A DNA stretch of 64,000 nt, taken from positions 23,002,001-23,066,000 of the forward strand of contig OY740797.1 in the NCBI GenBank assembly GCA_963514005.1. The letters run 5' to 3'. The number at the start of each line of letters is the position of its first letter. The stretch's first letter is position 1. Of this stretch, positions 452 through 63,680 are shown one piece after another. The stretch comes from Raja brachyura. Taxonomy: Eukaryota. The translations under genes and the position numbers were made by a program. The notes under the pieces were generated by a model that was not told the origin of the DNA, searched no databases, and saw nothing but the letters and a program-made list of their open reading frames with translations.

Positions 452-30248
<29,797 letters not shown>

Positions 30249-31374: not shown

Positions 31375-31590
31375 TAAAAGGACTGCAGGTGCGGGAACTT
31401 TGCGTTGAACACTGGGTGCTGGAGGAACCCGGGGTCAGGCAGTATATTTGGAGGACATGGATAGGTGACGTTTTTGGTCGAGACCCTGCTTCAGACTGAT
31501 TGGAGTAGGGGAGAAAAGACTGAAACGTTGCCTATCCATGTCCTCCAAATATACTGCCTGACTCATTGTGTTACTACAGCACAAAGTTCT
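31375..31590. mobile_element. Fold-back Penelope-derived element with 32-bp perfect inverted repeat
   Basis: 31434-31465 is the exact reverse complement of 31531-31562. Confidence 0.8.
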
Positions 31591-44200: not shown

Positions 44201-47200
44201 TTATCCTTCCATCTAGAAAACCAATAAAACCAAGCTATCTGGGCAATGTAACACTGTTCCTTTGAAATTTCCTGCCTCAGGTGCCACATTACATAAAAAC
44301 ATAGAAATTAGGTGCAGGAGTAGGCCATTCGGCCCTTCGAGCCTGCACCGCCATTCAATATGATCATGGCTGATCATCCAATTCAGTATCCCGTACCTGC
44401 CTTCTCTCCATACCCCCCGATCCCCTTAGCCACAAGGGCCACATCTAACTCCCTCTTAAATATAGCCAATCAACTGGCCTCAACTACCCTCTGTGGCAGA
44501 GAGTTCCAGAGACCCACCACTCTCTGTGTGAAAAAAGTCCTTCTCATCTCGGTCCTAAAGGATTTCCCCTAATCCTTAAACTGTGACCCCTTGTCCTGGA
44601 CCTCCCCAACATCGGGAACAATCTTCCTGCATGTAGCCTGTCCAACCCCTTAAGAATTTTGTAAGTTTCTGTAAGATCCCCTCTCAATCTCCTAAATTCT
44701 AGAGAGTATAAACCGAGTCTATCCGAGTCTATTACAATAGTGACTTCACTTCAAAATGTACTTGGCTGCTTGTAAAGTGTTTTAAGATATCTTCAATTTG
44801 GAAATGTAATGCTTTGCACTCCAGAACACGGTCTTACAAAATGAACAGAAATACTGGCTGCTTTAGTGTATTGATCCTGAGGTAAAAGGCACCAAATCTT
44901 GACAGTGCCTTCTGGTACCTGAATCCTGTCCCTCTTACTGGTCTGCAATGAAGAACCAAGGGGGAGATGGATCATGAGCAATGATTTTATTTGATCAGAT
45001 ATGGGATTCAGAGGTCATCAGACATCCTGCAAATCAAAGCTAAAATTTCCATTACCACCACAGGAGGTTTACATGGATATCACGCAAGTGTGCCTGAAAT
45101 TGGAATTGTTTTGCAGGAGAGATATTCTCCACAGAATAAGCCTGGCTGAGGTCCTGCGTCACTGTAATGAACCTTCATAGCCAAACCTTATAAAGGTATG
45201 TTGGAAGGGCAAAAACAAAACCACGGGCAGAGAAGAGCTGGGAAAATGGCTTATCTACTATATTCTCTACTATAAATTTGACATGAACATTTTTCTCACT
45301 GGCTACCAAACTGCAGAGATATCAGAGCCTAATCCTGCCCACGTCCCTACACTGCCAACACCTCTATACTGCAGAGACTTATCCCCATAGCATGCAGCCC
45401 AGAAAGTTCTTGCACTATCAAATCTGATCAGTACCCGCTCAACAAGACCGTCGCCCCAGTTGTGCAGCAGCTTTTGGGCCTGGCAGGAAGCCCCAATCCT
45501 CACCTGTTCAGCCATTTCCCCCGTTCTTCGGTCAGCTTCTCCACTCCCCGCACCACGTTCCCGCTCTCCAGCAGACTGAAGGCCTCAGTCCATGCCCGGT
45601 TAGCAGCGGGCCCACTGCGGAGCCCACCCTGCCTTCCAGCCACGCAACCCAAGACATCCGCCACGCATGCGAGGGCGCGGGCCGCGATCCCCAGGTCCTT
45701 GGTGCTGGCAGCCACTGTGAAGCAAGAGGGCAGTTGGTAGTTTCTTGCACATTAATCTTGTCCATTCCTTGAGTCCAAAGTTGGCCTCAGGTATCAAAAA
45801 AAGGACACTGGGTCACCTTGTTATCGCCAATAAATGAAAGATATCCTGCAGGAACGCATCTTGTCTTATAACACAGGATAAAAATGGGAAAAAGGGGTTG
45901 GCATAAGAGAAAAACAATTTTTTTATGAACACGATTGGTCTGGAATTAGTAGTGGTGGGTTGCCTGCACTCTGGCTCCTCGCATCCATTAACAATGTTGG
46001 TCGGTGGTTAACATAAATATATAACTATATAACAATTACAGCACGGAAAAAGGCCATCTTGGTCCTTCTAGACCGTGCCAAACACCTAGTCCCATCTACC
46101 TACACTCAGACCATAACCTTCCATTCCTTTCCCATCCATATACCTATCAAATTTATTTTTAAATGATAAAATCGAACCTGCCTCCACCACTTCCACTGGA
46201 AGCTCATTTCACACAGCTACCACTCTCTGAGTAAAGAAGTTCCCCCTCATGTTACCCCTAAACTTCTGTCCCTTAATTCTCAAATCATGTCCTCTTGTTT
46301 GAATCTTCCCTACACTCAATGGAAAAAGCTAATCCACGTCAACTCTGTCTATCCCTCTCATCATTTTAAAGACCTCAATCAAGTCCCCCCTTAACCTTCT
46401 GCGCTCCAAAGAATAAAGATCTAACTTGTTCAACCTTTCTCTGTAACTTAGGTGCTGAAACCCAGGCAACATTCTAGTAAATCTCCGCTGTACTCTCTCT
46501 ATTTTGTTGACATCTTTCCTATAATTTGGCGACCAAAATTGTACACCATACTCCAGAATTGGCCTCACCAATGCCTTGTACAATTTTAACATTACATCCC
46601 AACTTCTATACTCAATGCTTTGATTTATAAAGGCCAGCACACCAAAAGCTTTTTTACCACCCTATCCACATGAGATTCCACCTTCAGGAAACTATGCACA
46701 GTTATTCCTAGATCCCTCTGTTCAACTGCATTCCTCAATTCGCTACCATTTACCATGTACGTCCTATTTTGATTTGTCCTGCCAAGATGTAGCACTTTAT
46801 CAGCATTAAACTCCATCTGCCATCTTTCAGCCCACTCTTCCAAATGGCCTAAATCTCTCTGTAGACTTTGAAAATTCACTTCATTATCCACAATACCACC
46901 TATCTTAGTATCATCTGAATACTTACTAATCCAATTTACCATACCATCATCCAGATCATTGATGTATATGACAAACAACAGTGGACCCAACACAGATCCC
47001 TGAGGCACCCCACTAGTCACCGGCTTCCAACCTGACAAACAGCCATCTACCATTACTCTCTGCCATCTCCCATTCATCCACTGTTGAATCCATCTTGCTA
47101 CTCCACCATTAATACCCAACAATTGAATCTTCTTAACCAACCTTCCAAGTGGAACCTTGTCAAAGGTCTTACTGAAGTCCATATAGACAACATACACCAC

Positions 47201-50200
47201 TTTACCCTCATGAATTTCCCTAGTAACCTCTTCAGAAAATTCAAGATTAGTCAAACATGACCTTCCAGGCACAAATCCATGTTAACTGTTCCTAATCAGA
47301 CCCTGTTTATCCAGATGCTTATATATATTATCTCTAAGTATCCTTTCCATTAATTTGCCCACCACTGATGTCAAACTAACAGGTCTATAATTGCTAGGCT
47401 TACTCTTAGAACCCTTTTTAAACAATGGAACAACATGCGCAGTACGGCAATCCTCCGGTACCATTCCCGTTTCTAATGACATTTGAAATATTTCTGTCAT
47501 AGCCCCTGCTATTTCTACACTAACTTTCCTCAATGTCCTAGGGAATATCCTGTCAGGACCTGGAGACTTATCCACTTTTATATTTTTCAAAAGTGTCAGT
47601 GCTTCCTCTTCTTTGATCCTCATAGTTTCCATAGCTACTCTACTTGTTTCCCTTACCTCACATAATGCAATAATTATGATCTGCACAGCTCAATTGGTTT
47701 GTTGCCACCTCAGGTGTGAAAGGTCGAGAGTTGAAATGGAGCAGGTTGGATTCCAGGCCATCAAGCAGCAGAGTGCTGAAGATGCTTTGTACTGCAGGAG
47801 GAGTGATGTAGGTGATGTAGTCATAGAGTCGTACAACACAGAAACAGGTCCTTCGGTCCACCACATACATGCCGACCTTATCGTCCATTTACACTGATCT
47901 CATTTGATACACAGATACATAGAAAATAGGTGCAGGAGTAGGACATTCGGTCCTTCGAGCTAGCACAGCCATTCAATGGGATCATGGCTGATCATCCACA
48001 ATCAGTACTGCGTTCATGCCTTCCCCCCTTATCCCTTGATTCCGCTAGCCCTAAGAACTCTATCTACTGTAACTCTCCTTTGAATGCATCCAGTGGATGG
48101 GGTGGAAGATTGCAACCTTCACATGGTCCGCCCTGTTTCGACGAATGCAATCAACCCGGCGTGCACAATCAACTAAGATCAAATAGAACAAGTTGTCCTA
48201 TAACTTTAGGCTGTGCACGCCATATGCAAGAAGAAGAAGAAGATCCAGTGAATCTGCCTCCATTGCCTTCTGAGGCAGAGAATTCCACAAATTCACACCT
48301 CTCTGGATGAAAAAGTTATTCATCATCTCAGTTCTAAATGGCCTATCCCTTATTCTTAAACTGTGGCCACCTGGTTCTGGTCTCCCCCAACGTCGGGAAC
48401 ATGTTTCCTGCATCTAGCGTCCAATCGCTTAATAATTTTATATGTTTCTATAAGATCCCCTCTCATCCTTCTAAATGCCAGTGAATATGAGCCCAGTCAT
48501 TCCATTCTTTCATCATATTACAATCCCGCCATCCCAGGAATTACCCTCATGAACCTACGCTGCACTCCCTCAATAGCAAGAATGCCTCTTCCTCAAATTA
48601 GACCAAAACTGCACACAATACTCCAGGTGTGGTCTCACCAGGGCCCCGTACAACTGAAAGTATTGAAGAAATTCTATCTTAAGCCCTTGGGCCGGTTACA
48701 TCTTAAGAAAGAGAAGCAGGTAAAGACCATTCAGCCCTATGCCTCTGCTCTGATATTTACCAAGATTACAGATGATCTTTCACTTCAGTGCCATTTTCTT
48801 GTGCCAGCTTCATGTCCCTTGATTCCCTTAATATCTAAGAATCTATTGATCTTTGCTACGTTCCGCTGAAGCTGTGAATTCCCAACATTTGCCACCCTCT
48901 GGGTGAAGAAATTCTTCTGATATCCTGAAATATGTTCCTGATTTGAGACAGGTTAGGAGAAATATTAACTTTGCGTCTACTGATTCAAGCCCTGTAGAAA
49001 TTGTATGCTTCAATTAGATAATCTCTATTCTTCTGAACTCAACAATCTAGGCCAACTCAATTTAATCCCTCCTTGGACAAACCCACCATTCCAGGAATCA
49101 ATTTGGTGAACCTTCATCTCATTTCCACTTTTGGAAGTATGTCCTTCCTCTGGTGGGGAGAACAGATCTGCACCCAGTGTTTCAGATGTAGTTTTGTCAG
49201 ATCCATCAATAATTGGACAAGACACCCTACTCTTGTGCTCAAGGCCTATGGCAATGGACTTGCTGGATGCTGGTGGAACTTCAGTGTAACCTCACCTGGA
49301 AGGTGACGCTCTGGCAGTGTCAGCTCACATCTCCACTGAAGCTCGAGCCTCTAGCTGCTGAGGTGGAGTTGAGGCCAAAAGCTCCCGACTATGAGAAATC
49401 CATAAGCTGTTGGTGAGCTACCCATTGTACAAATCCGTACGAAAGCTGGCCCTCACCTGTGTCGAGGGTGTGGAGTATTTGCTGCTCCTGCCCCTCGCAG
49501 ACGGCTGCTCTGATGAGAGGGCAGAGGCTGTTGTCTTTGCGGGCGTGCAGGATGCTCTGCACTTGGTGCTGGGCCTGGGCGAGGAAGAGCTGCTGCCTCC
49601 AGGCAAGCTCAATTTGCTGGTCCAGACAACTCAGGATCTCCCTCATCGACAGGCGCCAGGCAGACTGCCACTTCCTCAGATACTGTCCGCTCTCGTGCCC
49701 GAGCAGCCACAGCACGTCCTCCATCCCGATGGGCTCGGAAGTGTGCAGGATTGGGAAGAGCTGAGCGTTGAGCAGGTTATTATCCAGATGGCTGGGAGCC
49801 CAGACCTCGTCTTTCCTAAGAAAAACAAGCAGTCAATTAACTCCCAACCTGCACGGCTTTGGGACATGAAAGGACATCGGTGGACCCGGGTGAAACCTAC
49901 GTGTCAAAGGGAGATCGTGCAGACTTCAGATAGCGTCACTCGAGCTATGAACCAACAGTTCTACCAGTTTCAACGCATATTCTCAGTGAAATATGATTTC
50001 TAAGGATTGGTCCTGATTTTGACAAATAGTGGCCTGTGGTTCTATGGTTCAGGATTAAGTAAAAATGCTGTGTTTCTAAAATATTTAAAAAACGCAACTG
50101 CACCCTAATTCTCAGCTTTTGCTTCACTCAGGAGGCCGTGTGCAAATTAGGCGATTGCTCTGTGTAATATGGACTGGTCCTCACTCTGGTTTCTCGCTTC

Positions 50201-53200
50201 CATACCATTGCGGGAACTGTAATGTATTTTGGTACTACACACAGTGCACTAACACACGGAGCACTGAGTGCAGTCACATAACTAATAGGTTATTTCAATG
50301 CTTGAGTTCAATGAGTGAGCTTGAAATCTGTGCTCTCACTCACAATCCCCAACCCATCACGTCCAGCCAGCTAGCAACTGCTGGGTTCAGTCATCCCTTC
50401 CCACCCAAACCCAGGTACTTTCCTTGGTCCCTATACCTCCTCCCTCACCTCCATCCAGGGCCCCCAGCAGTCCTTGCAGGTGAGACAGAGGTTTCCAATG
50501 TGGCTCTCTCTACATCAGTAAGACCAAGAGAGTAAACTAGGTGACCGTTTTGCCACACACTTGCATTTGGTTGCCTAGATGTCTCTATTGCTAATCATTT
50601 TAATTTCCCTTCCCATTGCCATGCTGAATCTTTTGTCCTGGGCCTTCTCCTTTGCCAGAGTGAGGCCACATGCAAGCTGGAGGAACAGCACCTCATATTT
50701 CACCTGGGTAGCTTACAACCCTAGGTGGATAGGTGAATACAGGTGAGAGGGGGTTTGATTAGCAGATGGGATGACCAAGGCTAGAGATGAAAAAGAGACA
50801 TAAAGGTGTTAGATTGCTGGACGGGAGTTGCACAATGGATGGGAGTTCCTAAACTTTACAATCAATCTGGTACCCTTCCTTATCTTGCTGGTTGCCTACT
50901 GCGGAATATAGAAGAATATAGAAGGAAATCCCTGGGGCGGGGGGGGTTAAGACTTGGTGTGCAGGACAAGGTTTTGGTGTGCAGGTCAAGGTTTCCTCAT
51001 ACTTGGACATCGCTGTGGTGGTTTATAGGTCAATAGGCATGGGTCAGAGTAAATGAACCCACAATCTTGGTGACATCTGACAGATCCGCTGCCCTCTTCA
51101 ACAGCAGATTGCATTACTTGTAGGTGGATGGCTTTTAGTAGGTTGGGGAGGGGAGGTTGTGAGTTAACAGGATGCTTTCTTCTCTTCACCAAAGGTGACA
51201 ACCTCCATCTGGTGAGCGGGGTGGGTGGGTGGGTGGTCATTGTCAACGTAAGTGACCAATCTTTATCTGACCCCAGGAGGTAACGCAGAGAAACCATCCT
51301 TACCCAATATCCACTAGATTAGTCATCACACTTGCATTCTGCCTCACCAAACGAGAGTTAAACATTTGGTACAGCAAATTTGGTCAGTCTCTTAACCTAG
51401 CTAGTCCTAGGATTTACATACTCATCGATCCTCAAAGTCTTTAGATGCCTTGAGCAAAACACAAAATGCTGGAGGTCAGGCAGCATCTGTGGAGGGAATG
51501 GAAAGGCAACGTTTCGGGTTGGACTCTTCTTCAGACTGATCAGTTCCAAAATCTATGTCCCTTTTCACTGCCACCTGCAGGATTAAAGATAACACTAAAT
51601 CAGTGCACTGAGCATAGGCAGCCATGGGCAGAGTTGGCTGTTCATCTCCTGGATAGTCAGCAACTGCTTCCAGAACTCTCTCTGGTACTCATTACACTTT
51701 GAGTGAGAAAGGTCCCCTCAGATTCCCTTTAAATTACTTACCCCTTGCATTTTTTCTGCCATTCAATTATAGCTTAGTTGATCTGCATTTGAATCCCAAT
51801 TTAACATAATTGATTCTCCAACTCCTACTATCCTTTTCTAACAAAAAATGATAATTTTCAGTTCTTAATTTTTCTTCTAACCTACAGTCTCTGCAGCTTT
51901 TTGAGAGAGTTCTAGATTTCTTTTACCCGGACAGAGTGGCTGAAGTTGTGTTGTTGACAGTATTTAGGAAGTGGTGAGAGGAACACTTGAATCAATTTGA
52001 CATAGTGATGGACCAAGTGCTGGGTGATGGGTTTAATACAGAAGTGTGCCCCCTGGTTGACTTAGACAAATTGGTCCGAATGGCCTGTTTCCATGCTGTA
52101 TGATTCCAGGATTTTAGATGAAAAAGCTTCCAGACACACTCAACCAGCTGTTCGAATTTAAAGTCTAGGCACTTTGGGCAATACTCCCCTCTGAAAAAAA
52201 AACTTTCAGACTCTCTACTCCACACTTTAGTAAGGTTTGAACTAGCTTTAAAACAGTCAAATAACAGATGATGTGGACACTTTCTCCATTATTAATTAAG
52301 GATGTCATAGAGTTGTACAGCATGGAAACAGACCCTGCGGCTTGGCTTATCCATGAACCCAACAACGTTGATCATATTTGCCCACGTTACGCGTGTACTC
52401 TTCTACGCCTTTCCTATTCGTACTTGAAATGTCTTTTAAACATAATTCTATCCGCCTCCACAACCTCCATTATGTTTGGTATCACCTCATCTTGGCTATC
52501 TTCCAACATGGTACGTTGGTTGCCACAGGGAGATGGATCGAGAGACTATTAAAGACAGAGCTTCACTGATTAATCTGTCAACATCAAATAAATCATAAGC
52601 AGTCTGCAGTCAGTTTTCAAGGTTGACTGCCATATGTGAGTTGTTTGCTCACAAATCCCTGTGAAGATAAACAACAAAAGGATGAGGAAAATAACAGTAT
52701 TTTATTTAAATATGCACAGAAGTATTGTCATAGAGCGCCGCGTGAAAGGGCAATGGCTAAAAATCCAATTGTAACTTTCGAAAAGGAACTGTCTATTTAT
52801 TTATACAGAAACCTTCAAGGCAAGAGCAGGGAAGTGGTTCTAATTGGATCCATCCTCTGGGCAGAAAACCTTCTGCAACATGGCTCTACGATGCTACCAC
52901 TGCGGTGCTACTTATGAAGATGCATGCAAGAAAGGACATGGATTAGCCTTACTTGATTCCCGTCTTTTCAAAGAATTTGGACCATGGAACATTCAGGAAT
53001 GTTGAGCAGCTATTGCTGAAAGGTACCTGTGGAGAGACCATATGATTCTATTGTTGACAATAGTTTGGATCCACCAAAGGAAAGATTGCATCAAACTCAG
53101 AAAAGGCTGGTTTGTACCCAGCTGGTTGGGCTCTTACAAATCCAAAATTGAAAATACAAATAAGAACTGAGATTGATTTTGAGGACAAATATCTCATAAT

Positions 53201-56200
53201 TAACCAAAACCAGCAATCCAGAAGTACTCCAGGAGACTACTTTCCATCCACATCACCTTTACTCTCAGGAACATCCATTTCTGTCATGGATGTATTGAAA
53301 TACCTGCGACAAGAATTTAAGGTGGAAGGCACAAGCCAGAGCGTTCAAATTTATCCCTCCCTGTTTTTTTTATATCCAAGGACAGCAGGAGAAAATCATA
53401 TAGAGGTCGAGCCAACCTGTTCAATGATCCTGTGCACCAGTACCACAGCTCTGTCAAGCCCCCTATTCTTTTGTTCTCCTCAATGGACAAACATTTATCA
53501 GGCTAGGCCGAGAATATTCACAATGTCTGGAAATCCACAGCTGTGGGACTTTCCCTGGAGGCTGTGGGGTGACATTACAGAAGTTGGTAAAATTATGAAG
53601 GGCATAGATAAGGTATATGACCACTGTCTTTTTCACAGAATAGGAAAGTGTAAAACTAGATGGTATAGATACAAAATAAGAGGGGGAAGATTCAGATGGG
53701 AATGATTTAAAGGGAACCCAAGGGGCAAGGTCTTTACAGAGGGTAGTAAGTTTATGGAACGAGCTGCCAGAGGAAGTGGCAGAAGCGGGTATGATTCCAA
53801 TGTTTAAAAAACATGTGGACAGGTTCATGGATGGGAAAGATTCAGAGGGATCTGAGCCAAACATGTGCTGTAAATCTAGATCAGTAAGGCACTTTGGTCA
53901 GCATAGACGGGTTGGGCCAAAGTGTCTGTTTGTGAACTGTACGACACTGTGGCAATGGGAAAATGTAACTTCCACTCTGGCAGTGAGCTTGCTGGAGTGG
54001 GATGTCTCGTGGTACGACCCACTGGTTACACACCTTCACTTACTCCTTTTGCAGAATCACTTTAACGCATTTCTTGCGCAGGATGATAACAGGACAGTGA
54101 AAGTGATGGTGGGCTCCTGCTGACAAACAAGGCATGTAACCATGCAATGAGATTCTTGGATTGATAAGCAGGAATGACCAAGGGAGGAAGAATAGATAGG
54201 GACTGAAAAGCAGAGAGAAATAAAAGATTGGGAAGAGCAACACAGTGGTACAGCTGCTGCCTCACATCTCCAGACACACAGATTTCAATCCTGACCCATT
54301 TGTTAAGTTTACAATCGGGAGAATGATATTGCTCTGAAAACTGAGATTGGGCAACAGACCTGATAAGCTGAATGACCTTTTCTGTCATAAGGAAATATAG
54401 AAAAGTAAGTGAAAGATAAAAGAACCAGGATAACTTAGGATAACGACAGAGGGCTGTGAATATTTGGAGATCTCCAGCTCTGAGGGAGGTCACTGTGTAA
54501 ATTCAAGGCAGGTATCAATAGAGGTAAGGACACCACAGGAAATGAGTGATGTGGTATTAGGAAGGCATGTGGGTGATGTAGAGAATCAGCCATGACATCT
54601 GGGCCTGAGTACCTGTAAAATATTTGAGTTATTATTTTGTATTTTCTTAAAACTTAGACTACGTTGTACCCTCTCTGACCTTCGTTTTCAACATTGAGAG
54701 ACTTGTTAATTATCAGCTCAAAATTTCTGGTGTGAGTTCAGTGGCCAATTGCTGCACAAATCTAAAAAATCATGTTCTTAAAAATAACAAGCAGTTTAAG
54801 GGCGAGGAAAACAGTGGACCAGCGCAAAGCTGCCTGCAGGTCTTGGGAATCTGCAGGCCATGTATCATCTCTTAATCAGCAGCAGTTGCTGCCAACTCAC
54901 CCAGTAATAGCAGCACACGCCACAAACATACCACCACGCTTCCAGCATTGTTAACTGCATTGTGTGTGAGGATAAGCAATCTAATTTTAATGTTAGGGAA
55001 GTGGGATCTGCAAGATATGAGCGCAGGACCAATATTGATTTTGCCTTGCTCTGTTCCCTGAAGGTGCCGTCAGCCCATGATTCATAGCATGGAAGCCTTT
55101 CCACAGCTCCCCGCTTCTGTATTGAGTGATGAGCATCAGCTGACATGAAAGGTCCTTAGGCTGTATACATGCGGTGTCTTGACCACAGCTCAGCTTTCAA
55201 CACCATAGTACCAAATATGCTCACCTCTGAACTCCTGGGCCATGGTTCCCTGCTCTACTACCTGTACACCCATAACTGTTTGGCCAAGTCCAGCGCAACT
55301 TGATCTTTAAGTTTGCCAATGATACCTCTCTTGTAGGCCAGACTAACAATAATGATGAAAATAGAGTACAGGAGAGAGATTGTGTGAAGATGTCAGAACC
55401 ACAACCTGGCCCATAACGTCAGCAAGGGGAAAGAATTGGTTGTTGACCTAAAGAAGCAGAGAGGTGAACAGAACCCTGAACAGATGGTTTTTAGCTTCAA
55501 GTTCCTTGATATCCATATTACCAACAACCTAACTAGGTCCTTTCACACTAATGTGGTGATCAAGTGCACAAACATATTTACTTTTATACGTGTCCGAAAA
55601 GATTTTGAGATTTCTCTTGAATCTATACAGTACTATCAAAAGTATTCTGAATGATCTGAAGAAGGGTCCTGACCTGAAACGTCACCCATCCATGTCCTCC
55701 AGAGATGCTGCCTGACCCATTGAGTCACTCCAGCACTTTGTGTCTTTTTTGTAAAACAGCATCTGCAGTTCCTTGTTTCTAGTCTCCATAGAAAGTATTC
55801 TGAAGGTATGCATCTCTGCCTAGTGGGGCAACTGTTCTGCTCTTGATTTGCCTGAACCTGCATAGAGTGATGAATATAGTCCATAATTCATCAAGGGATT
55901 GTCATTTCTTTCCATCCAGCCTATCGCCATGGTGCATTGAGTCAGGAAGGCTGAAAGTATCGTCAATGTTGCCTGACATATGGCCATTCTCTTTTCTCTC
56001 TTCTACCTTCTGGAGAAGATACAGAAACGGTGTGGAGATATGGGGTAACACCTACAAAACCAACCTACCGCCGTTATGCGCATTACAAAAAAGAGCAATA
56101 AGAATTATCAATAACGTTGGATATCTTGAACATACCAATTTATTATTCTTAAACTCACATTCACTGAAGTTCACCGATCTGGTTAAATTTAAGACTGGAC

Positions 56201-59200
56201 AAATCATGTACAAAGCAAGAAATAATTTACTTCCAGGAAATATACAAAAACTGTTTATGGAAAGACAGGGTGGGTATAATTTGAGAGGGGAACATAATTA
56301 AAAAAAACTCAATGTCAGAACAACTCTTAAAAGTATGTGCATAGCAATCTGTGGGGTGAATTTATGGAATGGTTTGGAACAGGAGATAAAACTTAGCACA
56401 AACATAATTCAGTTTAAAAAGATATACAAAAACACTTTTTTTAAAGGATATTGGGTGATTGTGAGTGAGATATTTGTTATACTGATTGTAATGGGAAGGG
56501 TGATTATAGGGTGATGGGTTGTATATATGACTAAGAGATACTGTATAGTACATGAGGGTTTTTTCTTATTTCTTCCTTTTTTTGGTGTACATATGGTGTA
56601 CATATAACTGCTAAATTTGTACAAGATAATTATAAGCAGTTGAATAAGGGGTGGGAATTAATAAGCTTTGGCTTGTTCCTGCTCCTTTTTGGACACATAG
56701 GATTTCATTTATTTATAGATATTGTTTATGACACTTTATAAATATTCTTGTTTTGTTTTTTGTATGCTGTTTCACACTCGCTTTTTATTGTTTTATTCTG
56801 TTCGAAATAAAGAATTAAATAAATAAATAAACAAATAAATAAATAAATAAACTGGAATGCCAGGATGTCCAGACAAAAGAGCAGCTTCCCTATGGCTATC
56901 AGGCTCATGAACTAAGCACATCCTTCATACCTCCTACCCAGAGATGCTACCATGTATGTATCTTTACTCTAAACTCTACCTCATTTACTTATTCCATATT
57001 TGTACTCTGGTACTCTTTTTGAACTACTTCGGATAACACTACAATCTTTGCAAAATTATGCTGTTTTCCATTTGTCGTTGTATTTATGGTATGTAGTCAT
57101 TGTACATAACGAATCAAGAATGTCTTGTTGTCGACTTAACGTATATTCCTCTGTGAGCTTTATGCGAATATGGAATATCCTTGCACCTAGCAGAACATTA
57201 CAGTAATCTAAATCTGAATGTGGAATGCAGGAGTTGGAAGTCCAGGCTTTGTTGCAGCAGTGGGCAGTACCGTGAGATTGTGGCTAAGCTGGATCAGCAT
57301 CCAGAGGAGAGGGAACTTTATATCTGTGTGGACTATGTCTGATGGGGTGGGCCATTTAGAACGGAGATGAGGAAAAACATTTACACCCTGAGAGTTGTGA
57401 ATCTGTGGAATTCTCTGCCTCAGAAGGCAGTGGAAGCCAATTCTCTGGATGCGTTCAAGAGAGAGTTACATAGACCTCTTAAAGATAGTGGAGTCAGGGG
57501 ATATGGTGAGAAGGCAGAAACGGGGTACTGATTGTGGATGATCAGCCATGATCACAGTGAATAGCGGTGCTGGCTCGAAGGGCCAAATGGCCTACCCCTG
57601 CACCTATTGTCTATTATCTATTGATACTGAATATCACAAAAAATCTGATATTGTCTGTTTGCACCATGCAGGTTCTGCAAGATTATGTTAATAAAATGAC
57701 CAAATGAGGAGCATTTACTACACCTGCAGATCATCTAGCCGCCCCATGATGGTGAAAATCCTCAGCTTCAAGCCCCTCAGCTTGATGTGGTGCCCCTGGA
57801 TGATCACATCACGGAGCTGGTGCCGTTGGAGCGAGAGCGATGACAGCTGATCCACTCCTGACAGCAGACAACCAGACCCTAAATGAATGGGCCCCTGTCA
57901 AAACAAAAAGCAGAGAGATGGGAACACCCTTCAGAAACCAAATCAAAAATCATAATCCCAAACACAAAGCCACATGAGCCCTCTATGTTTAATATCTAGC
58001 TATTTGCTTATACACTTACAGCATGGAAACAAGCCTTTCACACCCCCCCCCGGAGCCCATACCGATCAACTATGTCCATTCATTAGTTAGAATAGTTACC
58101 TACAACCATCTCAGACAGTTTCCTTTTAAGTTAAGGAGAAACAGGTTCTGCAGGCACTAAGAACGTCTGCTCCTGAATGAAGATGGCACAGGAACTGGAC
58201 ATTCAGCTCATAAAGTCAGTGCCGAATATGATACCATATTAAACTAATCTCCTCATCCTACATATGATCCATATCCCTTCATGCTCTACATTTCCATGTG
58301 CCTATGTAAAAGCCTCTTAAATGCCACCATCAGGTCTGCCTCCAGGCATCCACCAAGCTGTAAAACATTTGCCCCATACATCTCCTTTAAACTGTGACCC
58401 TCTCATCATAAAGTTATGCCCTATAGTTTTGCCATTTCTCCTGGGGAGAAGGTTCTGATAGTCCACCCTATATATGTCTATATATATGCCTCTCATGATG
58501 TAATAAACCTCTATCTCCTTAGTCTCCAAAGCTCCAGAGAAAACAATTCAAGTTTGTCCAACCTCTCCTAATGGCTAATATCCTTGAATCCAAGCAGCTT
58601 TCTAGTAAATCTCTGCTGCACCCTTTCCAAAGCCTCCACATCCTTCCTGCTGTTGGGTAACCGTAACTGCACACAAAAATACTAGACATGCAACGTCCTA
58701 CAAAGACTTCCAGTCTCATATTAAATGCCCGAACTGATGAAGGCAAGCAAACCACACGCCTTCTTTACCTCTCTATCTAATTGTGTTGCATCATCAGGGG
58801 GCTGTTGACTTGCACCCCAGGATCCTTCTACTTATCAATTCTTCAATGCTGTTTGCGGTCTTGCCATTAATTATACTTTCCCCTGTTGTTCAGCCTCCGA
58901 AAGGGGAACATCTCACACTTGCTCAGTTTAAACTCCAAATGCCTTTTCTCTGCCCATTTCTGTAGCTGATCTATACCCCGCTGTATACTCTAACAACCTT
59001 CCTAATTGTCTGCAACTCCATCAATTTTGCTGCTGACTGCAAACTTACGAACCAAGCTACCTACTTTTACGTCCAAATCATATATATATATATCATAAAC
59101 AACAGAGGTTCCAACGCAGATCCCTGCGGACCTCCACTAGGTACAGAATACCATCCGTCCACTACAACCCTCTGTCCTCTATGAGTAGGACTGTTCTGAA

Positions 59201-62200
59201 TCCAAATGACCAAGTCATTGTGGATCTCTTGCATCTTAACCTTTTGAATCTGTCCACCATGAAGGACTTTATCAAATACCTTACTCAAATTCATGTGGAA
59301 AACATCAACTACCCTACTCCAATTGATCATCTTTGTCAGCTTCTCAAAGAAATCACACAGTCGACTCAAGTGAGACCTGTCCTGTTGTGGATAAAGAAGT
59401 TGTAACTGTCACTAATTTGCCCATCACCTCCAAATGAGTGTAAGTCCTATCCCGAAGAATCCTCTCCAATAGCTTTCCAACCACTAGCATGAGGTTCACC
59501 GGCATATAATTTTCTGGATTCTCTCAGCTTCCCTTCTTAAACAAAAGATCAACATTGGCTAATTGTAGAAACAAAGAATTGCATATGCTGGTTAATACAT
59601 AAAGGACACAAAGTACTGGTGTAACTCATGAAGAAGGGTCTCGACACAAAATGTCACCTATCCATGTTCTTCAGAGATGCTGACTGACACGTTGAGTTAC
59701 TCTAACACTTTGTGTCCTTTTGTGAACAACATTGGCTTTTCTCCAGTCTTCCGGGATGTGGCTAAAGAAGATACAATGATCTTTGTTAAGACCCTTACAA
59801 TCTCCTCTCTTGCCTCTCAATAACCTGGCATACATCCCATCAGGTCCTGGAAATCCACCTTAATGCTCTTCAAGAGCCCCATATCAACTCCTTCTTGATC
59901 TTAAACTGCCTTTACATAATAGTATTCCTCACACTGATTTCACTGTTCTCCACGGTCTTCTCTTTGGTGAATGCGGATGCAAAGCACTCAGTTAGCACCT
60001 TGCCTCCATCCTCTGATTCCAAACATAAATTCACTCCTTTATCCAACATTCTCTTTGGTTACCCTTTTGTTTTGTTTGAAAATAAATTACAAATGAGGTG
60101 GTGTGTTACAAGCCAGTGGTCATCAATGTGCATGACAGTGGTTTAAAGAGAACCTACCTACGTCAGCCCAGTAATTACCAAGACCAATCTGAGACAGGTC
60201 CCTTTTAAGTTAAGGAAAAACAGGTTTGCTGACACTGAGAATGTCACCTCCTGAGTGAGGACACCACAGTATCCAAATATATGAATAAAGGCAGTGGACA
60301 ATGTGCATGTCAGTAGACCTACTTGCGTTAACACAGGTGAGCCATAGGCACATACTACATAGAACCCGCATGCAGTCTCTGTAATTCAACTGGCTTTAAT
60401 TTTTAAAAATTTGGGGAAACGTTTGCACCAGAGGGCGATGGATATATGGAACAAGCTGCCAGAGAAGGTAGTTGAGGTAGGTACTATAACAACATTTATA
60501 AGACATTTGGGCAGATGCATAGGTAGGAAGGTTTAGAGGGATATGGGCCAAGCACGGGCAGCTTAGATGGGGTACCCCCTTCATCTGCATGGACAAGTTG
60601 AGCCTGCTTCCGTGCTGTATGACTACTGACTCTATGACTCTCTACATGCATAGCAATTGGACTGAAAATTAAATACTGCAGGTAAATATAACTGCAGTGA
60701 AATAATTGCAAGCATTAGTGAAAAAATGTACAGGAATATTTTCTATAATGGGCTATGGAGATAGTTGAGCATAGCCTGTGTTTTACCTCAAGGTGGCAGT
60801 GTTGTACAACACTGTTTGGTTCAATTCTGATCTCTCCTTCCAGAAGGCTATTGATGACAGAACAATTCTTGTTCAACAGAGCATGGTGCTGTAAAACAAA
60901 AAAGTTGTGTTAGACAATAAGCTTTATCTCTTTGTTTTACATCAAAGTGAAAGCAACAGTTTTAAGGTATGTAACAAATGCTATGTGTATGCTGGATTTA
61001 GCAATGTCTATCAATATTCATAATTGACTAGATTGACAGCAAGAGTTCAGGCCCATTAACCTGAGACATTCGTTCAAATCCCACCATGACAGCTGGGGAA
61101 TATCAATTCAAATAATTAAACAAAGGTGAACATTAAAAGCTAGTCTCAGTAATCACAGCTATGAAACTTTCAGACTGTTGTAGAAACTCATTTTGCTCAC
61201 TGACCTTTTCAAAGGAAGGGGATCTGCCCTCTTTGCAATCACCTCTTTCACACCCACTCCCTGGGGTGCTGCCATGTACTCTTAACTCTATCTCATTCAG
61301 TTATTCCATTTTTATACTTTCATTTTCTCTTGCACTACTTCAGATTGCATTGCAACATTCTGCTCTTTTGCACTTAATGTTATACTTAATGTTGTAACTA
61401 TCAGGTAGCAGGTAGACACAAAATGCTGGAGTAACTCGGCAGGACAGGCAGCATCTCTGGAGAGAAGGAATGGGCGACGTTTCGGGTCGAGACCCTTCTT
61501 CAGACTGATGTCAGGGGAGTGGGTGGTACAGAGATAGAATGTGGTCGGAGACAGTAAGACTGGTGGGAGAACTGGGAAGGGGGAAGGGATGGAGAGAGGG
61601 GGGAAAGTCAGGGCTCCTTGTTAGAGAGGTCAATGTTCATACTGCTGGGGATTAAGCTACCCAAGCGAAATAAAAGGTGCTGTTCACTCTGACAATGGAG
61701 GAGGCCCAGGACAGAAAGGTCAGATTGGGAATGGGAGGGGGAGTTAAAGTGCTGAGCAACCGGGAGATCAGGTAGGTTAAGGAGGACTGAGTGGAGGTGT
61801 TCAGCCAAACCATCGCCGAGCCTGCGCTTGGTCTTGCCGATTTACAGTTGACATCTGGAACAGCAGATACACTAGACAAAGTTGGAAGAGCTGCAAGTGA
61901 ACCTCTGCCTCACTTGAAAAGACTGTCGAGGTCCTTGGAAGGAGTCGAGAGAGGAGGTAAAGGGACAGGTGTTGCATCTCCTGCAGTTGCAGGGGAAGTA
62001 CCTGGGGAGGGGGTGGTTTGGGTGGCCTGGTATGTAAAACCTCATCCTGGGCGCAGACGGAGGAATTGGCAGTAGGGGATAGTCTTTACAGGAAGCAGGG
62101 CGGGAAGAAGTGTAGTCTCGATAGCTATGGGAGTCAGTGGGTTTGTAATAGATGTCAGTCAATTATCTCCAGAGATGCTGCCTGCCTGTACCGCTGAGTT

Positions 62201-63680
62201 ACTCGAGCATTTTGTGTATATCTTCGATTTAAACTGGCATCTGCAGTTCTTTCCTACACATATAATACCTGCATGTTGTTTACTCTGAGCTACATGCTAA
62301 CACAAAATTTAATTGCATCCTGGTGCATATGACAATAAACAAATCTGAATCAGAATCCAACTCTCCTCTGCCTTCGTAGTTTTGGGGCAATTAGGGGTGG
62401 ATATTATGTACCAACGTTTGCCAGTGACATCCATGTCCTATGAATCAGAAAAAATCCCTCAAAGGATTAAGTGGATAGTGTGTGGAAACAGTCTGTAATC
62501 CTCAAATCTGCAAAATAACTCACCACAACATGTGAAATGACTAAGCTTTGTTGGGTAGACAGAGCCATTTTTTCCTCTGACAGATGTTCTAAACAAGAGG
62601 AATAACGCAACTATAATGGAGACTTTTTTTTTGGAAGTGGCGGCTCGCCAGCAGTCCGTCTGTTTTTTCTTTTCTTTTTGTTTTCTTGTGTCTGTTTTAG
62701 TTACATTTTAGTTTATTAGGCTGTGTATATGTGTGTGGGGGAGGGGGGGGAGAAACAAGGTTTTAGTCTCTCCCTTCGGGAGGATGCGACTTTTTCTTGT
62801 CGTGTCCCCGTCACCGTCTGTGCTGAGGCCTAATGGCGGAGCTGGAGGCCTCGGAGCTGTGGCGGTGCTCCAGCGGCGGAGGCGGACCCGGCTTCAGAGC
62901 TGTGGCGGCGTTCCAGCAGCGGACCCGGCTTCAGAGCTGTGGCGGCGTTCCAGCAGCAGACCCGGCTTCAGAGCTGTGGCGGCGTTCCAGCAGCGGACCC
63001 GGCTTCAGAGCTGTGGCGGCATTCCAGCAGCGGACCCGGCTTCAGAGCTGTGGGTGTGGCGTTCCAGCGTTCCGGCAGCGGAACCGGCTTCAGAGCTGTA
63101 GCGGTGTTCCAGCGTTCCGGTGACGGCGGTGGCGGCGGCCCGGCTTCGGAGGCTCGGCCGCGGGCCTAGTGGACGAAAACATCGGAGGCCTGGATTGCCT
63201 CAGCGCAGAGGGAGAACAACGAGGGAAGAAGACAAAGACTTTAAGACTTTTGCCTTCTACCACAGTGAGGAGGTGTCTGGTGAACTCACAGTGGTGGATG
63301 TTAAATATGTGTTTATTGTGTGTTTTGTTTTTTATTAGTCTTATTTTAGGTTTATCTGAATGATGGAAGCAGCCTGCTCATATTCCTATGCTCAGAACCA
63401 CCTTCCCTCACCGAACTAACAGGTGAGGTTCTACACTAGGTTGTGGAACAGGACTATTTATCCAAACAGCAGGAAATATCTGTGAAAAAAGTGAAGGGAG
63501 TAAGACAGAAAAAGAGGCAGCAATCCCAATGATAGGTATAGTTGTTACATACGGTCAGCTTAGAGTACACAACATGATGGCTCACGAAGCAGTCGGAGAC
63601 ATTCCCTCTCCGGGTCAGGTTCCGTACGTGGTCATCAGCTGACAAGCTCATGTAGTCATAGCCACCATCAGCTACAAGAG
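35144..63680 (-). CDS. FCSK: L-fucose kinase (fucokinase), spliced CDS, 5'-partial: complement join(63553-63680,60787-60888,57724-57894,52953-53026,49457-49815,45504-45714,43328-43494,41380-41604,40858-41001,38561-38680,37692-37879,36242-36341,35595-35818,35144-35218)
   Basis: 14 GT-AG exons with compatible phases; GHMP kinase motifs [44 protein letters not shown]; tail-to-tail with COG4 as in human. Confidence 0.97.
35595..35818 (-). CDS. FCSK: FCSK penultimate coding exon
   Basis: tgacag|GT GAC..AGT GAG|gtaaga; [46 protein letters not shown]. Confidence 0.96.
36242..36341 (-). CDS. FCSK: FCSK exon
   Basis: ttacag|GAT GTT..AAA G|gtaagc; [33 protein letters not shown]. Confidence 0.96.
37040..37550 (+). 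mobile_element. CR1 LINE 3' fragment, degraded
   Basis: aagattcacaaggatg..aatgagctgccagaagaagtggtg..acatttaagagtcatctggac. Confidence 0.75.
37692..37879 (-). CDS. FCSK: FCSK exon
   Basis: gtctag|GT GGA GGC TGG..CTG CAG|gtgagc; [36 protein letters not shown]. Confidence 0.97.
38561..38680 (-). CDS. FCSK: FCSK exon
   Basis: tcttag|GG ACT AGT..ACA G|gtaacc; [39 protein letters not shown]. Confidence 0.96.
38908..39548 (+). mobile_element. CR1 LINE 3' part, young, inserted into an HE1-like SINE
   Basis: Open ORF2 C-terminus [45 protein letters not shown]..; (ttctatgt)n tail; SINE head 38818-38907 and tail 39550-39720 on either side. Confidence 0.93.
40858..41001 (-). CDS. FCSK: FCSK exon
   Basis: tggcag|GA GCT TTG..ATG G|gtgagt; [47 protein letters not shown]. 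Confidence 0.96.
41380..41604 (-). CDS. FCSK: FCSK exon
   Basis: ctgtag|GT GGC TGG..CCA G|gtaccc; [22 protein letters not shown]. Confidence 0.96.
41690..42220 (-). mobile_element. Penelope-like element GIY-YIG region, degraded
   Basis: Homologous to 61620-62030 (gaggcccaggacagaaaggtcag..; gggggtggtt). Confidence 0.75.
43328..43494 (-). CDS. FCSK: FCSK exon
   Basis: ctgtag|G CCT GAC..TCA G|gtacat; [35 protein letters not shown]. Confidence 0.96.
44291..44725 (-). mobile_element. CR1 LINE 3' end, same subfamily as 38908-39548, opposite strand
   Basis: catagaaattaggtgcaggagtaggccattcggcccttcgagcctgcaccgcc.. Confidence 0.9.
45504..45714 (-). CDS. FCSK: FCSK exon
   Basis: tcacag|TG GCT..AAC AG|gtgagg; [42 protein letters not shown]. 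Confidence 0.96.
46020..47670 (-). mobile_element. CR1 LINE, 1.65-kb 5'-truncated copy with reverse-transcriptase domain (frameshifted)
   Basis: [45 protein letters not shown] motifs over three ORF pieces. Confidence 0.95.
47905..48655 (-). mobile_element. CR1 LINE 3' part
   Basis: catagaaaataggtgcaggagtagg tail; [17 protein letters not shown] remnant. Confidence 0.85.
48096..48242 (+). mobile_element. Short retroposon with (GAA)n tail nested in CR1
   Basis: 8-bp TSD ATCCAGTG at 48088-48095 and 48243-48250; ends gcaagaagaagaagaag. Confidence 0.8.
49457..49815 (-). CDS. FCSK: FCSK exon
   Basis: tcttag|G AAA GAC..ACA G|gtgagg; [44 protein letters not shown]; 359 nt. Confidence 0.94.
50405..50722 (+). 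mobile_element. Penelope-like element GIY-YIG fragment
   Basis: [38 protein letters not shown] remnants. Confidence 0.75.
52953..53026 (-). CDS. FCSK: FCSK exon
   Basis: ccacag|GTA CCT..ATC AA|gtaagg; [24 protein letters not shown]. Confidence 0.92.
53560..53950 (+). mobile_element. CR1 LINE 3' end
   Basis: [19 protein letters not shown]..; tggaacgagctgccagaggaagtgg; tail gggttgggccaaagtgtctgttt. Confidence 0.8.
55652..55791 (+). mobile_element. Penelope-derived mini-element with hammerhead core
   Basis: CTGAAGA-a-GGGTC-ct-GACCT-GAAACGTC; 13-bp TSD AAAGTATTCTGAA at 55639-55651 and 55792-55804. Confidence 0.8.
56029..56851 (+). mobile_element. L2/Crack-group LINE 3' end, young
   Basis: [38 protein letters not shown]2 C-terminus with one in-frame TAA; 3' UTR; (AAAT)n tail. 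Confidence 0.75.
57350..57622 (+). mobile_element. CR1 LINE 3' end
   Basis: gttgtgaatctgtggaattctctgcctcagaaggcagtgg..gcacctattgtctatt. Confidence 0.85.
57724..57894 (-). CDS. FCSK: FCSK exon
   Basis: tgacag|GGG CCC ATT..CTG CAG|gtgtag; [48 protein letters not shown]. Confidence 0.93.
58220..60060 (-). mobile_element. CR1 LINE, old 1.8-kb RT-containing fragment
   Basis: [22 protein letters not shown] remnants with many stops. Confidence 0.85.
59561..59726. mobile_element. Fold-back Penelope-derived mini-element in CR1
   Basis: TSD CAACATTGGCT at 59550-59560 and 59727-59737; aaaggacacaaagt..taactc inverted against gagttac..actttgtgtccttt. Confidence 0.75.
60787..60888 (-). CDS. FCSK: FCSK exon
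   Basis: ttacag|CAC CAT..CTT GAG|gtaaaa; [34 protein letters not shown]. Confidence 0.93.
61405..62260 (-). mobile_element. Penelope-like retroelement: RT thumb plus GIY-YIG remnants with inverted terminal repeats
   Basis: [66 protein letters not shown]; 61410-61462 inverted to 62165-62220. Confidence 0.9.
61476..61503 (-). ncRNA. Minimal type I hammerhead ribozyme core in Penelope terminal repeat
   Basis: CUGAAGA-A-GGGUC-UC-GACCC-GAAAC-GUC; intact core and stem II, palindromic ACGU stem III, but stem I only 2 bp. Confidence 0.55.
62631..63340 (+). mobile_element. Unclassified GC-rich interspersed element containing a tandem array
   Basis: Abrupt CpG-rich block with T-rich flanking segments, unlike the host intron. 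Confidence 0.5.
62883..63120. repeat. 37-bp minisatellite, 4 near-perfect plus 2 expanded copies
   Basis: Unit cggacccggcttcagagctgtggcggcgttccagcag starting at 62883, 62920, 62957, 62994, 63031. Confidence 0.95.
63553..63680 (-). CDS. FCSK: FCSK exon, 14th from last
   Basis: ttgcag|CT CTT GTA..CTG ACC|gtatgt; [42 protein letters not shown], aligns with human AYVSSGSYSYM..IVHSQVE. Confidence 0.88.

Follow-up and report, generated by a model that had tools for sequence, protein, structure and literature searches.

Minimal hammerhead ribozymes (min-HHRs) have been reported from the pseudo-long terminal repeats (pLTRs) of Penelope-like elements (PLEs), where they occur mostly as solo copies, are weakly active as dimers and include a variant with a helix I of 2 bp (PMC4209133). 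For PAc (Poseidon_Ac), a PLE of Anolis carolinensis, protein-assisted cutting, the use of uncut RNA and two starts of the reverse transcriptase (RT) have been published (Frangieh et al. 2024, PMC11167929). Animal non-LTR retrozymes carry a type I hammerhead derived from PLE pLTRs and were reported from the one chondrichthyan sampled (bioRxiv 10.64898/2026.07.22.740005). We describe the hammerhead motif at positions 61476-61503 (minus strand) of a 64,000-nucleotide stretch of the Raja brachyura genome (contig OY740797.1, positions 23,002,001 to 23,066,000; hereafter the window), its relatives in the window and the genome, and the PLE to which they belong. The motif is a real copy of the minimal hammerhead signature known from PLEs. 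It is ordinary for such elements, and what is published is the kind and not this family: in the open-access literature no paper was found that treats this family in cartilaginous fish or describes a PLE hammerhead as a capped RNA start (Lunse et al. 2017 may cover such variants), and no shark or skate is named in the two supplement files of PMC4209133 that were searched.

The minus strand at 61476-61503 reads CTGAAGA-A-GGGTCTCGACCC-GAAA-CG-TC, which confirms the motif given in a preliminary description of this DNA, and is identical to the core of an intact element elsewhere in the genome (L107:2487-2514). The cut is predicted after 61476, behind the GUC triplet. Stem II consists of GGGU/ACCC (4 bp) with a CUCG tetraloop. 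The 5-bp stem GGGUC/GACCC of the preliminary description was not retained, because its fifth pair would close a loop of 2 nt, a size excluded for such loops. Stem I has 2 bp (U-A or U-G, then G-C); the earlier remark on its shortness and on doubtful activity stands, and stem III is reduced to the palindrome ACGU. A single unpaired A ahead of stem II, the G10.1-C11.1 pair and ACGU are present in both the window copy and L107. The metazoan min-HHRs of PLEs share the position in the pLTR, the intact core, the unpaired base between 9 and 10.1, the G10.1-C11.1 pair, the palindromic 15.2-16.2, the lack of a stem III in the monomer and the predominance of solo copies from truncated elements (PMC4209133). 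Helix II has 4 bp here, in contrast to 7-8 bp in Schistosoma, and helix I has 2 bp instead of the typical 4-5 bp, the length of the Drosophila virilis variant; one nearly invariant family is found here, whereas the published ones are many and variable (PMC4209133). Retrozymes are short tandem units that each bear a hammerhead (bioRxiv 10.64898/2026.07.22.740005), whereas the window copies are dispersed monomers; identity as a non-LTR retrozyme, for which at least two short consecutive hammerhead units are required, was rejected.

The pattern CTGANGA-N11-14-GAAANNTH matched the window five times (9429-9456 plus, 11330-11357 plus, 51508-51534 minus, 55656-55683 plus and 61476-61503 minus), while 100 shuffles gave 0.25 matches on average and never as many as five; the family of motifs described earlier is thereby confirmed, including the decayed copies at 31467-31494 (minus) and 59629 (plus). 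With a profile made from 146 seeds that came from a genome sample, 15 full or partial copies were recovered in the window. The hammerhead database search that had been proposed as a check gave nothing, no hammerhead model of Rfam matching the window at E<=1.

The reading that we favor, at a probability of roughly 0.6, combines a capped RNA start at CAGU, two internal priming sites, run-off that yields solo copies, tandem read-through that yields longer ones, and a ribozyme that is off by default and rarely cuts. The motif would be the first ~31 bases of the capped RNA of the element, with transcription starting at the A (or G) of CAGU, a start that would limit stem I to 2-3 bp. As in PAc, the element protein would nick the target and prime reverse transcription at either of two positions within the RNA, close to its 5' end. 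The enzyme would run off the capped end after 95-135 nt, often copying the cap as a G, and leave a solo copy; most copies would be dead run-off products of reverse-transcribed uncut RNA. Longer copies, such as the remnant at 61476, may stem from RNA that reads through tandem elements. The 2-bp stem I, the missing stem III of the monomer and a competing hairpin over the cut site would keep the ribozyme off, and cutting would be rare, with help of the protein or as a dimer.

Run-off of the RT at a capped RNA start is suggested by a boundary loss, an extra G and target-site duplications. The A at -3 is lacking in 9,709 of the 40,808 exact copies of GT plus core, and the C at -4 in 6,473 of the remaining 31,099; combined, 40% of the 40,808 exact young copies lose the element sequence 2-3 nt upstream of CUGA, far more than point mutation would produce in copies whose 28-nt core is exact. 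Sixteen of 22 young sample copies extend no more than 4 nt upstream of CUGA. Among 242 anchored copies, 129 were without upstream homology (a class in which diverged untranslated regions (UTRs) may be hidden), 34 had an inverted arm and 79 had upstream pLTR. Of the 6,473 copies without C at -4, 3,188 have G there (49%), where about 27% would be expected of flanking DNA with G near 21%. At six of 60 inspected loci (L233, L237, L238, L291, L297 and L304) an exact duplication of 9-17 bp lies directly beside one or two G for which neither the target nor the element accounts; an untemplated G has been read as the copied cap in work on L1 (PMC9341517). A duplication-flanked copy is also found in the window, where 55652-55791 lies between two copies of a 13-mer. 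The right ends of the 22 young copies fall at +65 to +69 after the cut (13 copies), at +101 to +105 (6) or earlier (3), and resemble the 30-40-bp tail of PLEs and the two RT starts of PAc (PMC11167929). PAc likewise has two right ends ~35 nt apart just 3' of the hammerhead, which is likewise apparently uncut in the copied RNA. Its open reading frame (ORF), however, starts at stem II, whereas here 136 nt separate the cut from the ATG and the two right ends fall in the 5' UTR (PMC11167929). Head-to-head junctions were seen at L007, L064 and L116 as well as in the 34 inverted-arm copies of the sample of 242; several are near-perfect palindromes centered on CAG-N-CTG at the left boundary, which suggests fold-back priming of the new DNA end.

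Copies that start at the predicted cut were counted as transversion-type breaks before an exact young downstream stretch, and matches were inspected at the cut and one base to either side. The raw counts were 174 one base before the cut, 314 at the cut, 277 one base after and 225 two bases after. The core was missing in 20 of 40 inspected matches at the cut (42 rows minus two palindrome duplicates), in 7 of 30 one base before and in 4 of 20 one base after, that is, in 20/40 versus 11/50 at the two neighboring positions (Fisher p 0.007), or 17/37 versus 10/49 when independent events are counted (p 0.018). The starts are estimated at 157 at the cut, against 41 before and 55 after, an excess of about threefold. 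Doubling for unsearched letters gives ~300 starts at the cut, less than 1% of the young copies, whose number is put at 43,000 by estimate (16 per Mb). The excess is a weak but specific hint of cleavage, to which microhomology at inverted junctions could contribute. One insert starting exactly at the predicted cut is flanked by a duplication (L252). Three head-to-tail units of 61 nt, each running from the predicted cut to the nearer right end, were also observed (L274-L276; G000:C2:55272484-55272638); this triplet looks like repeated template jumps on cut RNA.

Folded from its putative start with ViennaRNA, the window copy is predicted to form a rod. Pairing of CGAC with GUCG covers the cut site, the downstream pyrimidine stretch takes up the CUGA/AAGGG strand, and the probability of stem II is 0.00. 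That probability exceeds 0.5 in one of 42 near-intact copies, with a mean of 0.06 versus 0.21 when the linker is shuffled. Shuffling the linker does not make the competing hairpin less stable (mean -19.6 either way), and selection for it is therefore unsupported. Unusual stability of the window copy was rejected (z -0.36), and no longer stem I through distal pairing appeared in the predicted folds. The ACGU duplex alone has a predicted energy of -1.7 kcal/mol; a hammerhead-like dimer (stems II and III only) reaches -12.7, versus -19.7 for the best dimer fold.

Intact relatives of the element were sought with an RT-proximal piece of 80 aa, which gave 5,879 candidates; 150 were scored, many of them in open frames of 800-1200 aa, and 20 stretches were examined. 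The locus L107 shows the whole design, with an inverted truncated copy, a 5' pLTR, the ORF, a 3' pLTR and a tail. Hammerheads are present in both pLTRs (2487-2514 and 6469-6496), and the ATG lies at 2650, 136 nt past the predicted cut. The ORF (P0002, 2650-6225) encodes 1191 aa, with weak Pfam matches to RVT_1 (E 5e-4) and, C-terminal to it, GIY-YIG (E 1.8e-3), neither of which reaches its curated cut-off. A CX4CxxC linker lies between the RT and the endonuclease (EN). Partial-tandem pLTRs, the inverted 5' copy and a 30-40-bp tail are present in L107, L110, L120 and the arrays L101-103 and L113-114. Intact tandem elements have their hammerheads ~4 kb apart: one array has five at a period of 3965, another three at ~4045, and every unit of both arrays bears one. 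A CX2-5CxxC linker between RT and EN defines the Neptune and Nematis clades against Poseidon, which lacks it (Craig et al. 2021, PMC8557442). The linker of P0002 points to a Neptune-type PLE (Neptune or Nematis clade) as the host element of the motif, and sets it apart from PAc, which belongs to the Poseidon clade (PMC11167929, PMC8557442). The EN-bearing (EN+) Neptune and Nematis elements have the same single ORF with RT followed by GIY-YIG, the DKG motif and the CX4CxxC linker, and the same partial tandems, inverted 5'-truncated upstream copy and optional tail. Unlike them, the element described here has a long low-complexity, proline-rich N-terminal stretch in an ORF of 1191 aa, and its insertions are not confined to microsatellites and often have duplications of 8-17 bp (PMC8557442). 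In P0002 the proline/serine-rich stretch (about aa 165-465) lies between a conserved-looking N-terminus and the RT, and its length varies (frames of 1033-1208 aa). At L065:4447-4705 and L110, two copies of the element have inserted either tail to tail or in the form of flanking inverted repeats.

The window remnant is 70-85% identical to P0002. A deletion of ~315 nt joins its RT C-terminal piece to the GIY-YIG part, and the region 61620-62012 alone gave no Pfam match. The earlier placement of the best copy in the terminal repeat of a Penelope remnant with GIY-YIG and RT thus holds for the GIY-YIG remnant and the C-terminal piece of the RT; the catalytic core of the RT is missing.

The genome contains 31,099 exact copies of a 31-mer of the family (reversed control 0). 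In a 1-Mb sample of 100 evenly chosen 10-kb stretches from large contigs, the profile matched 409 times (reversed control 0), with at least one match in 93 of the 100 stretches, and the high copy number proposed earlier for the family is well founded. A general min-hammerhead descriptor gave 75 matches in the sample versus 1, 4 and 6 in three resampled controls. Extrapolation to 2.7 Gb gives an estimate of ~1.1 million pieces (3-4% of the DNA) and ~190,000 descriptor-passing motifs, compared with 4,000 in the coelacanth and 9,000 in Xenopus (PMC4209133).

Variation was analyzed in the 211 of the 409 sample matches whose alignment covers both the beginning of the core and the cut. Within the core, variation is highest at the CpG sites (majority 70-82%, versus 87-97% elsewhere), and the GACCU variant, cited earlier as a case of kept pairing, is CpG decay of GACCCG. 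The paired fractions were 0.875/0.824/0.836/0.889, versus 0.868/0.824/0.834/0.866 expected from independent columns, and in stem II they equal this expectation. No covariation was found in stems II and III of these copies, mutual information lying within background with 1-4 compensatory cases per pair; the preliminary description's claim that pairing is kept while the sequence varies is not borne out, although within a single young family this is a test of low power, and the absence of covariation is weak evidence against function too. No diverged sister family was found for cross-family covariation among 1,165 CUGAYGA variants, the 100 listed looking like point mutants. The core boxes are kept in 104 of the 211 copies, together with stem II in 65 and with ACGU as well in 40. 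Linkage between columns is strongest for subfamily markers, which lie downstream of the cut and in loop II. Core conservation in inserted copies was 0.948, versus 0.926 at tail positions, with detection biased toward the core; special conservation of the core in these copies was rejected. Inserted copies decay neutrally and in the CpG manner, and the master elements appear to have kept the core, since subfamily differences fall mostly downstream of it.

The window copies and the parts of the remnant are listed below.

Table. Features of the hammerhead family in the window
Feature	Position	Strand	Remarks
Segment 3' of the cut, to the nearer of the family's two right ends (~+65)	61409-61475	-	
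Minimal type I hammerhead core	61476-61503	-	CUGAAGA, extra A, 4-bp stem II, CUCG loop, GAAA, palindromic ACGU, GUC triplet
AGU, 5' strand of the 2-bp stem I; family-wide, putative first bases of the element RNA	61504-61506	-	Family-wide 5' boundary
Pyrimidine-rich 3' UTR / upstream pLTR part	61507-61619	-	Common to 29 other loci at 91-95%
Broken linker and GIY-YIG endonuclease region	61620-62012	-	Two in-frame stops within the domain; tblastn to P0002 aa 1051-1189, 70.5%, E 1.5e-47
RT C-terminal region piece, 5'-truncated	62023-62162	-	tblastn aa 893-919, 85% (62082-62162); blastn to L107
Inverted piece of element right end with long tail, at 5' end of the remnant	62159-62260	+	No hammerhead core
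Solo copy, intact core and tail	55652-55791	+	Antisense in FCSK; 13-bp target-site duplication (55639-55651, 55792-55804)
Solo copy with tail	11327-11457	+	Sense in COG4; triplet GUU, stem II closed by a U-G pair; duplication of 8 bp on both sides, plus 6 nt of filler
Solo copy	51452-51534	-	Sense in FCSK; stem II shortened and mismatched
Solo copy	9429-9535	+	Sense in COG4; stem III palindrome lost (AUGU)
Decayed copy	59629-59721	+	Antisense in FCSK; core broken
Head-to-head pair	31406-31582		Outside both coding spans; 31406-31494 minus, core broken; 31520-31582 plus, core truncated
Copy without CUGA box	28359-28444	+	Profile search
Further partial or old copy	9996-10061	-	Profile search
Further partial or old copy	13326-13399	-	Profile search
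Further partial or old copy	20964-21007	+	Profile search
Further partial or old copy	42337-42371	-	Profile search
Further partial or old copy	43202-43280	+	Profile search

COG4 is encoded on the plus strand (Pfam COG4_m at 6349-6720 and 15514-15687, COG4_C at 29309-29446), and its last coding exon, read by eye, ends near 30245. The minus-strand gene has a GHMP kinase C-terminal match at 35511-35927, with the coding end near 35 kb, and a fucose pyrophosphorylase match at 60718-60909 (E 2e-5, under Pfam's curated cut-off); we take it to be FCSK, of which these are the two halves expected. Dispersal of the motifs through the introns of both genes, as described earlier, applies to the copies inside COG4 and FCSK; the copy at 31467-31494 is in no intron between coding exons, but in the stretch that separates the last coding exon of COG4 from the coding end of FCSK.

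Two older Penelope remnants, with 39-56% protein identity to P0002, were found at 41708-42371 (minus) and 50378-50721 (plus), the first with a tail piece. Introns of COG4 and FCSK also contain tandem repeats at 25964-26410 (48 nt), 26716-26868 (46-47 nt) and 62845-63114 (37 nt). An inverted repeat at 17376-17564, with 65-nt arms (80%) around 59 nt, resembles the hairpin of a miniature inverted-repeat transposable element and gave weak Rfam matches to plant miRNAs, far below threshold. Recent 3' ends of long interspersed elements (LINEs; 81-98% identical pairs) and a second family resembling LINEs or short interspersed elements (SINEs) lie at 18770-19490 and 46014-46734 and also at about 38900-39550, 44290-44730, 47900-48660 and 57340-57620. 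The copy at 46-47.7 kb keeps a long RT-like frame on the minus strand.

Several observations weigh against run-off from a capped start or restrict how far it can be taken. Fifty-four of the 60 inspected loci have no clean duplication-plus-G and show filler DNA, inverted arms, or a short or absent duplication, and junction microhomology may give part of the G excess, because 11 of 30 G-prefixed loci carry an inverted arm upstream. The sequence CAGUCUG is an interrupted palindrome that follows a pyrimidine tract ending in CAG, so that fold-back, RT stalling or a 3' splice site could also set the left boundary. Contigs from runs guessed to be RNA contain the motif but show no starts, ends or strand, and their agreement on the core is circular, as they were retrieved by shared words. 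At the cut, the raw count of 314 is close to the 277 one base downstream and not far from 174 and 225, and the threefold excess is drawn from 90 inspected matches, two of which were re-classed by eye (a 2-nt deletion and a diverged core). The folds predicted with ViennaRNA ignore the tertiary contacts of the core, and the clade is read from the linker motif. A left boundary set by structure (the CAG-N-CUG palindrome, or else the base of the 5' hairpin, making the RT stall or fold back) or by a 3' splice site, as in D. virilis Penelope, is unlikely. It would fit the 34 of 242 anchored copies with an inverted arm, several centered on CAG-N-CTG, and for splicing the pyrimidine tract with CAG and the D. 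virilis intron that ends at the 5' end of helix I (PMC4209133). The extra G before AGT or GT beside clean duplications, however, is expected from a cap and not from a stall, and splicing would give copies with U as their first base after an exon common to all, whereas no such exon was found upstream of the short copies; among the 15 of 63 contig joints listed, no GT..AG skip ended here and no form spliced at CAG/U was seen.

It is distinctly unlikely that an efficient dimer ribozyme cuts tandem precursors into units that are circularized and copied, a retrozyme-like course following the model of Cervera and De la Pena, even though the core, the extra A, the G10.1-C11.1 pair and the ACGU palindrome fit the published min-HHR (PMC4209133), intact elements do occur in tandem, the masters seem to have kept the core, subfamily differences falling mostly downstream, and copies that begin at the cut are in small excess. 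No fixed stop ahead of CUGA would result from a circle, and less than 1% of the young copies start at the cut, versus ~40% at the upstream boundary. Array partners are 4 kb apart, the best predicted dimer fold outcompetes the hammerhead-like one, published min-HHR dimers cut weakly (PMC4209133) and PAc inserts uncut RNA (PMC11167929). That the motif is a catalytically dead relic, kept by overlap with an internal promoter (an initiator-like YCAGT plus a downstream element) or with a protein-binding site, is very unlikely and, apart from the claim that it never cuts, would be compatible with run-off from a capped start. The missing covariation in 211 copies and the predicted exclusion of stem II agree with it, as do the internal TATA-less promoter of D. 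virilis Penelope, with an initiator and a downstream element (PMC2377424), and the spread of Naiads without canonical hammerheads (PMC8557442). Against it stand the intact catalytic positions of the youngest elements, the start excess at the cut, including the 61-nt triplet and the duplication-flanked L252, and the cutting of the PAc hammerhead when its protein is present (PMC11167929). Regulation of COG4 or FCSK through cutting of their pre-mRNA by sense intronic copies is hardly credible. The sense orientation in both genes, stressed earlier, holds for four core-bearing copies (9429, 11330, 51508 and 61476), the last with a perfect core, while those at 55656 and 59629 run antisense to FCSK. 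Damage or alteration is seen in three of the four sense copies, the solo intronic copies are without a close partner, a hairpin is predicted to occlude the cut, and the density in the window (15 per 64 kb, ~234/Mb) is below the average of the 1-Mb sample (409/Mb); a significance of the intronic, sense placement is not supported.

In the introns of COG4 and FCSK the copies are probably inert passengers. Nothing points to a host function, and for the two genes the finding most likely has no meaning. For the family, we tentatively propose, at somewhat less than even odds, that its ~1 million copies form a fossil library of 5' ends: a capped hammerhead 5' end held off by a hairpin, and strong-stop-like DNA of 95-135 nt that integrates alone, would produce a SINE-like family without a SINE master gene, and the class starting behind GUC would record real cleavage in the germ line. 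The family bears on the role of the PLE hammerhead in vivo and on where reverse transcription of PLEs starts and finishes (PMC8557442, PMC11167929), and it yields precise predictions, namely one capped start, two priming sites and one rare cut. If these hold, they would account for the predominance of solo copies among the min-hammerheads of animal genomes, and the large ribozyme counts obtained from genome scans would be largely dead run-off DNA.

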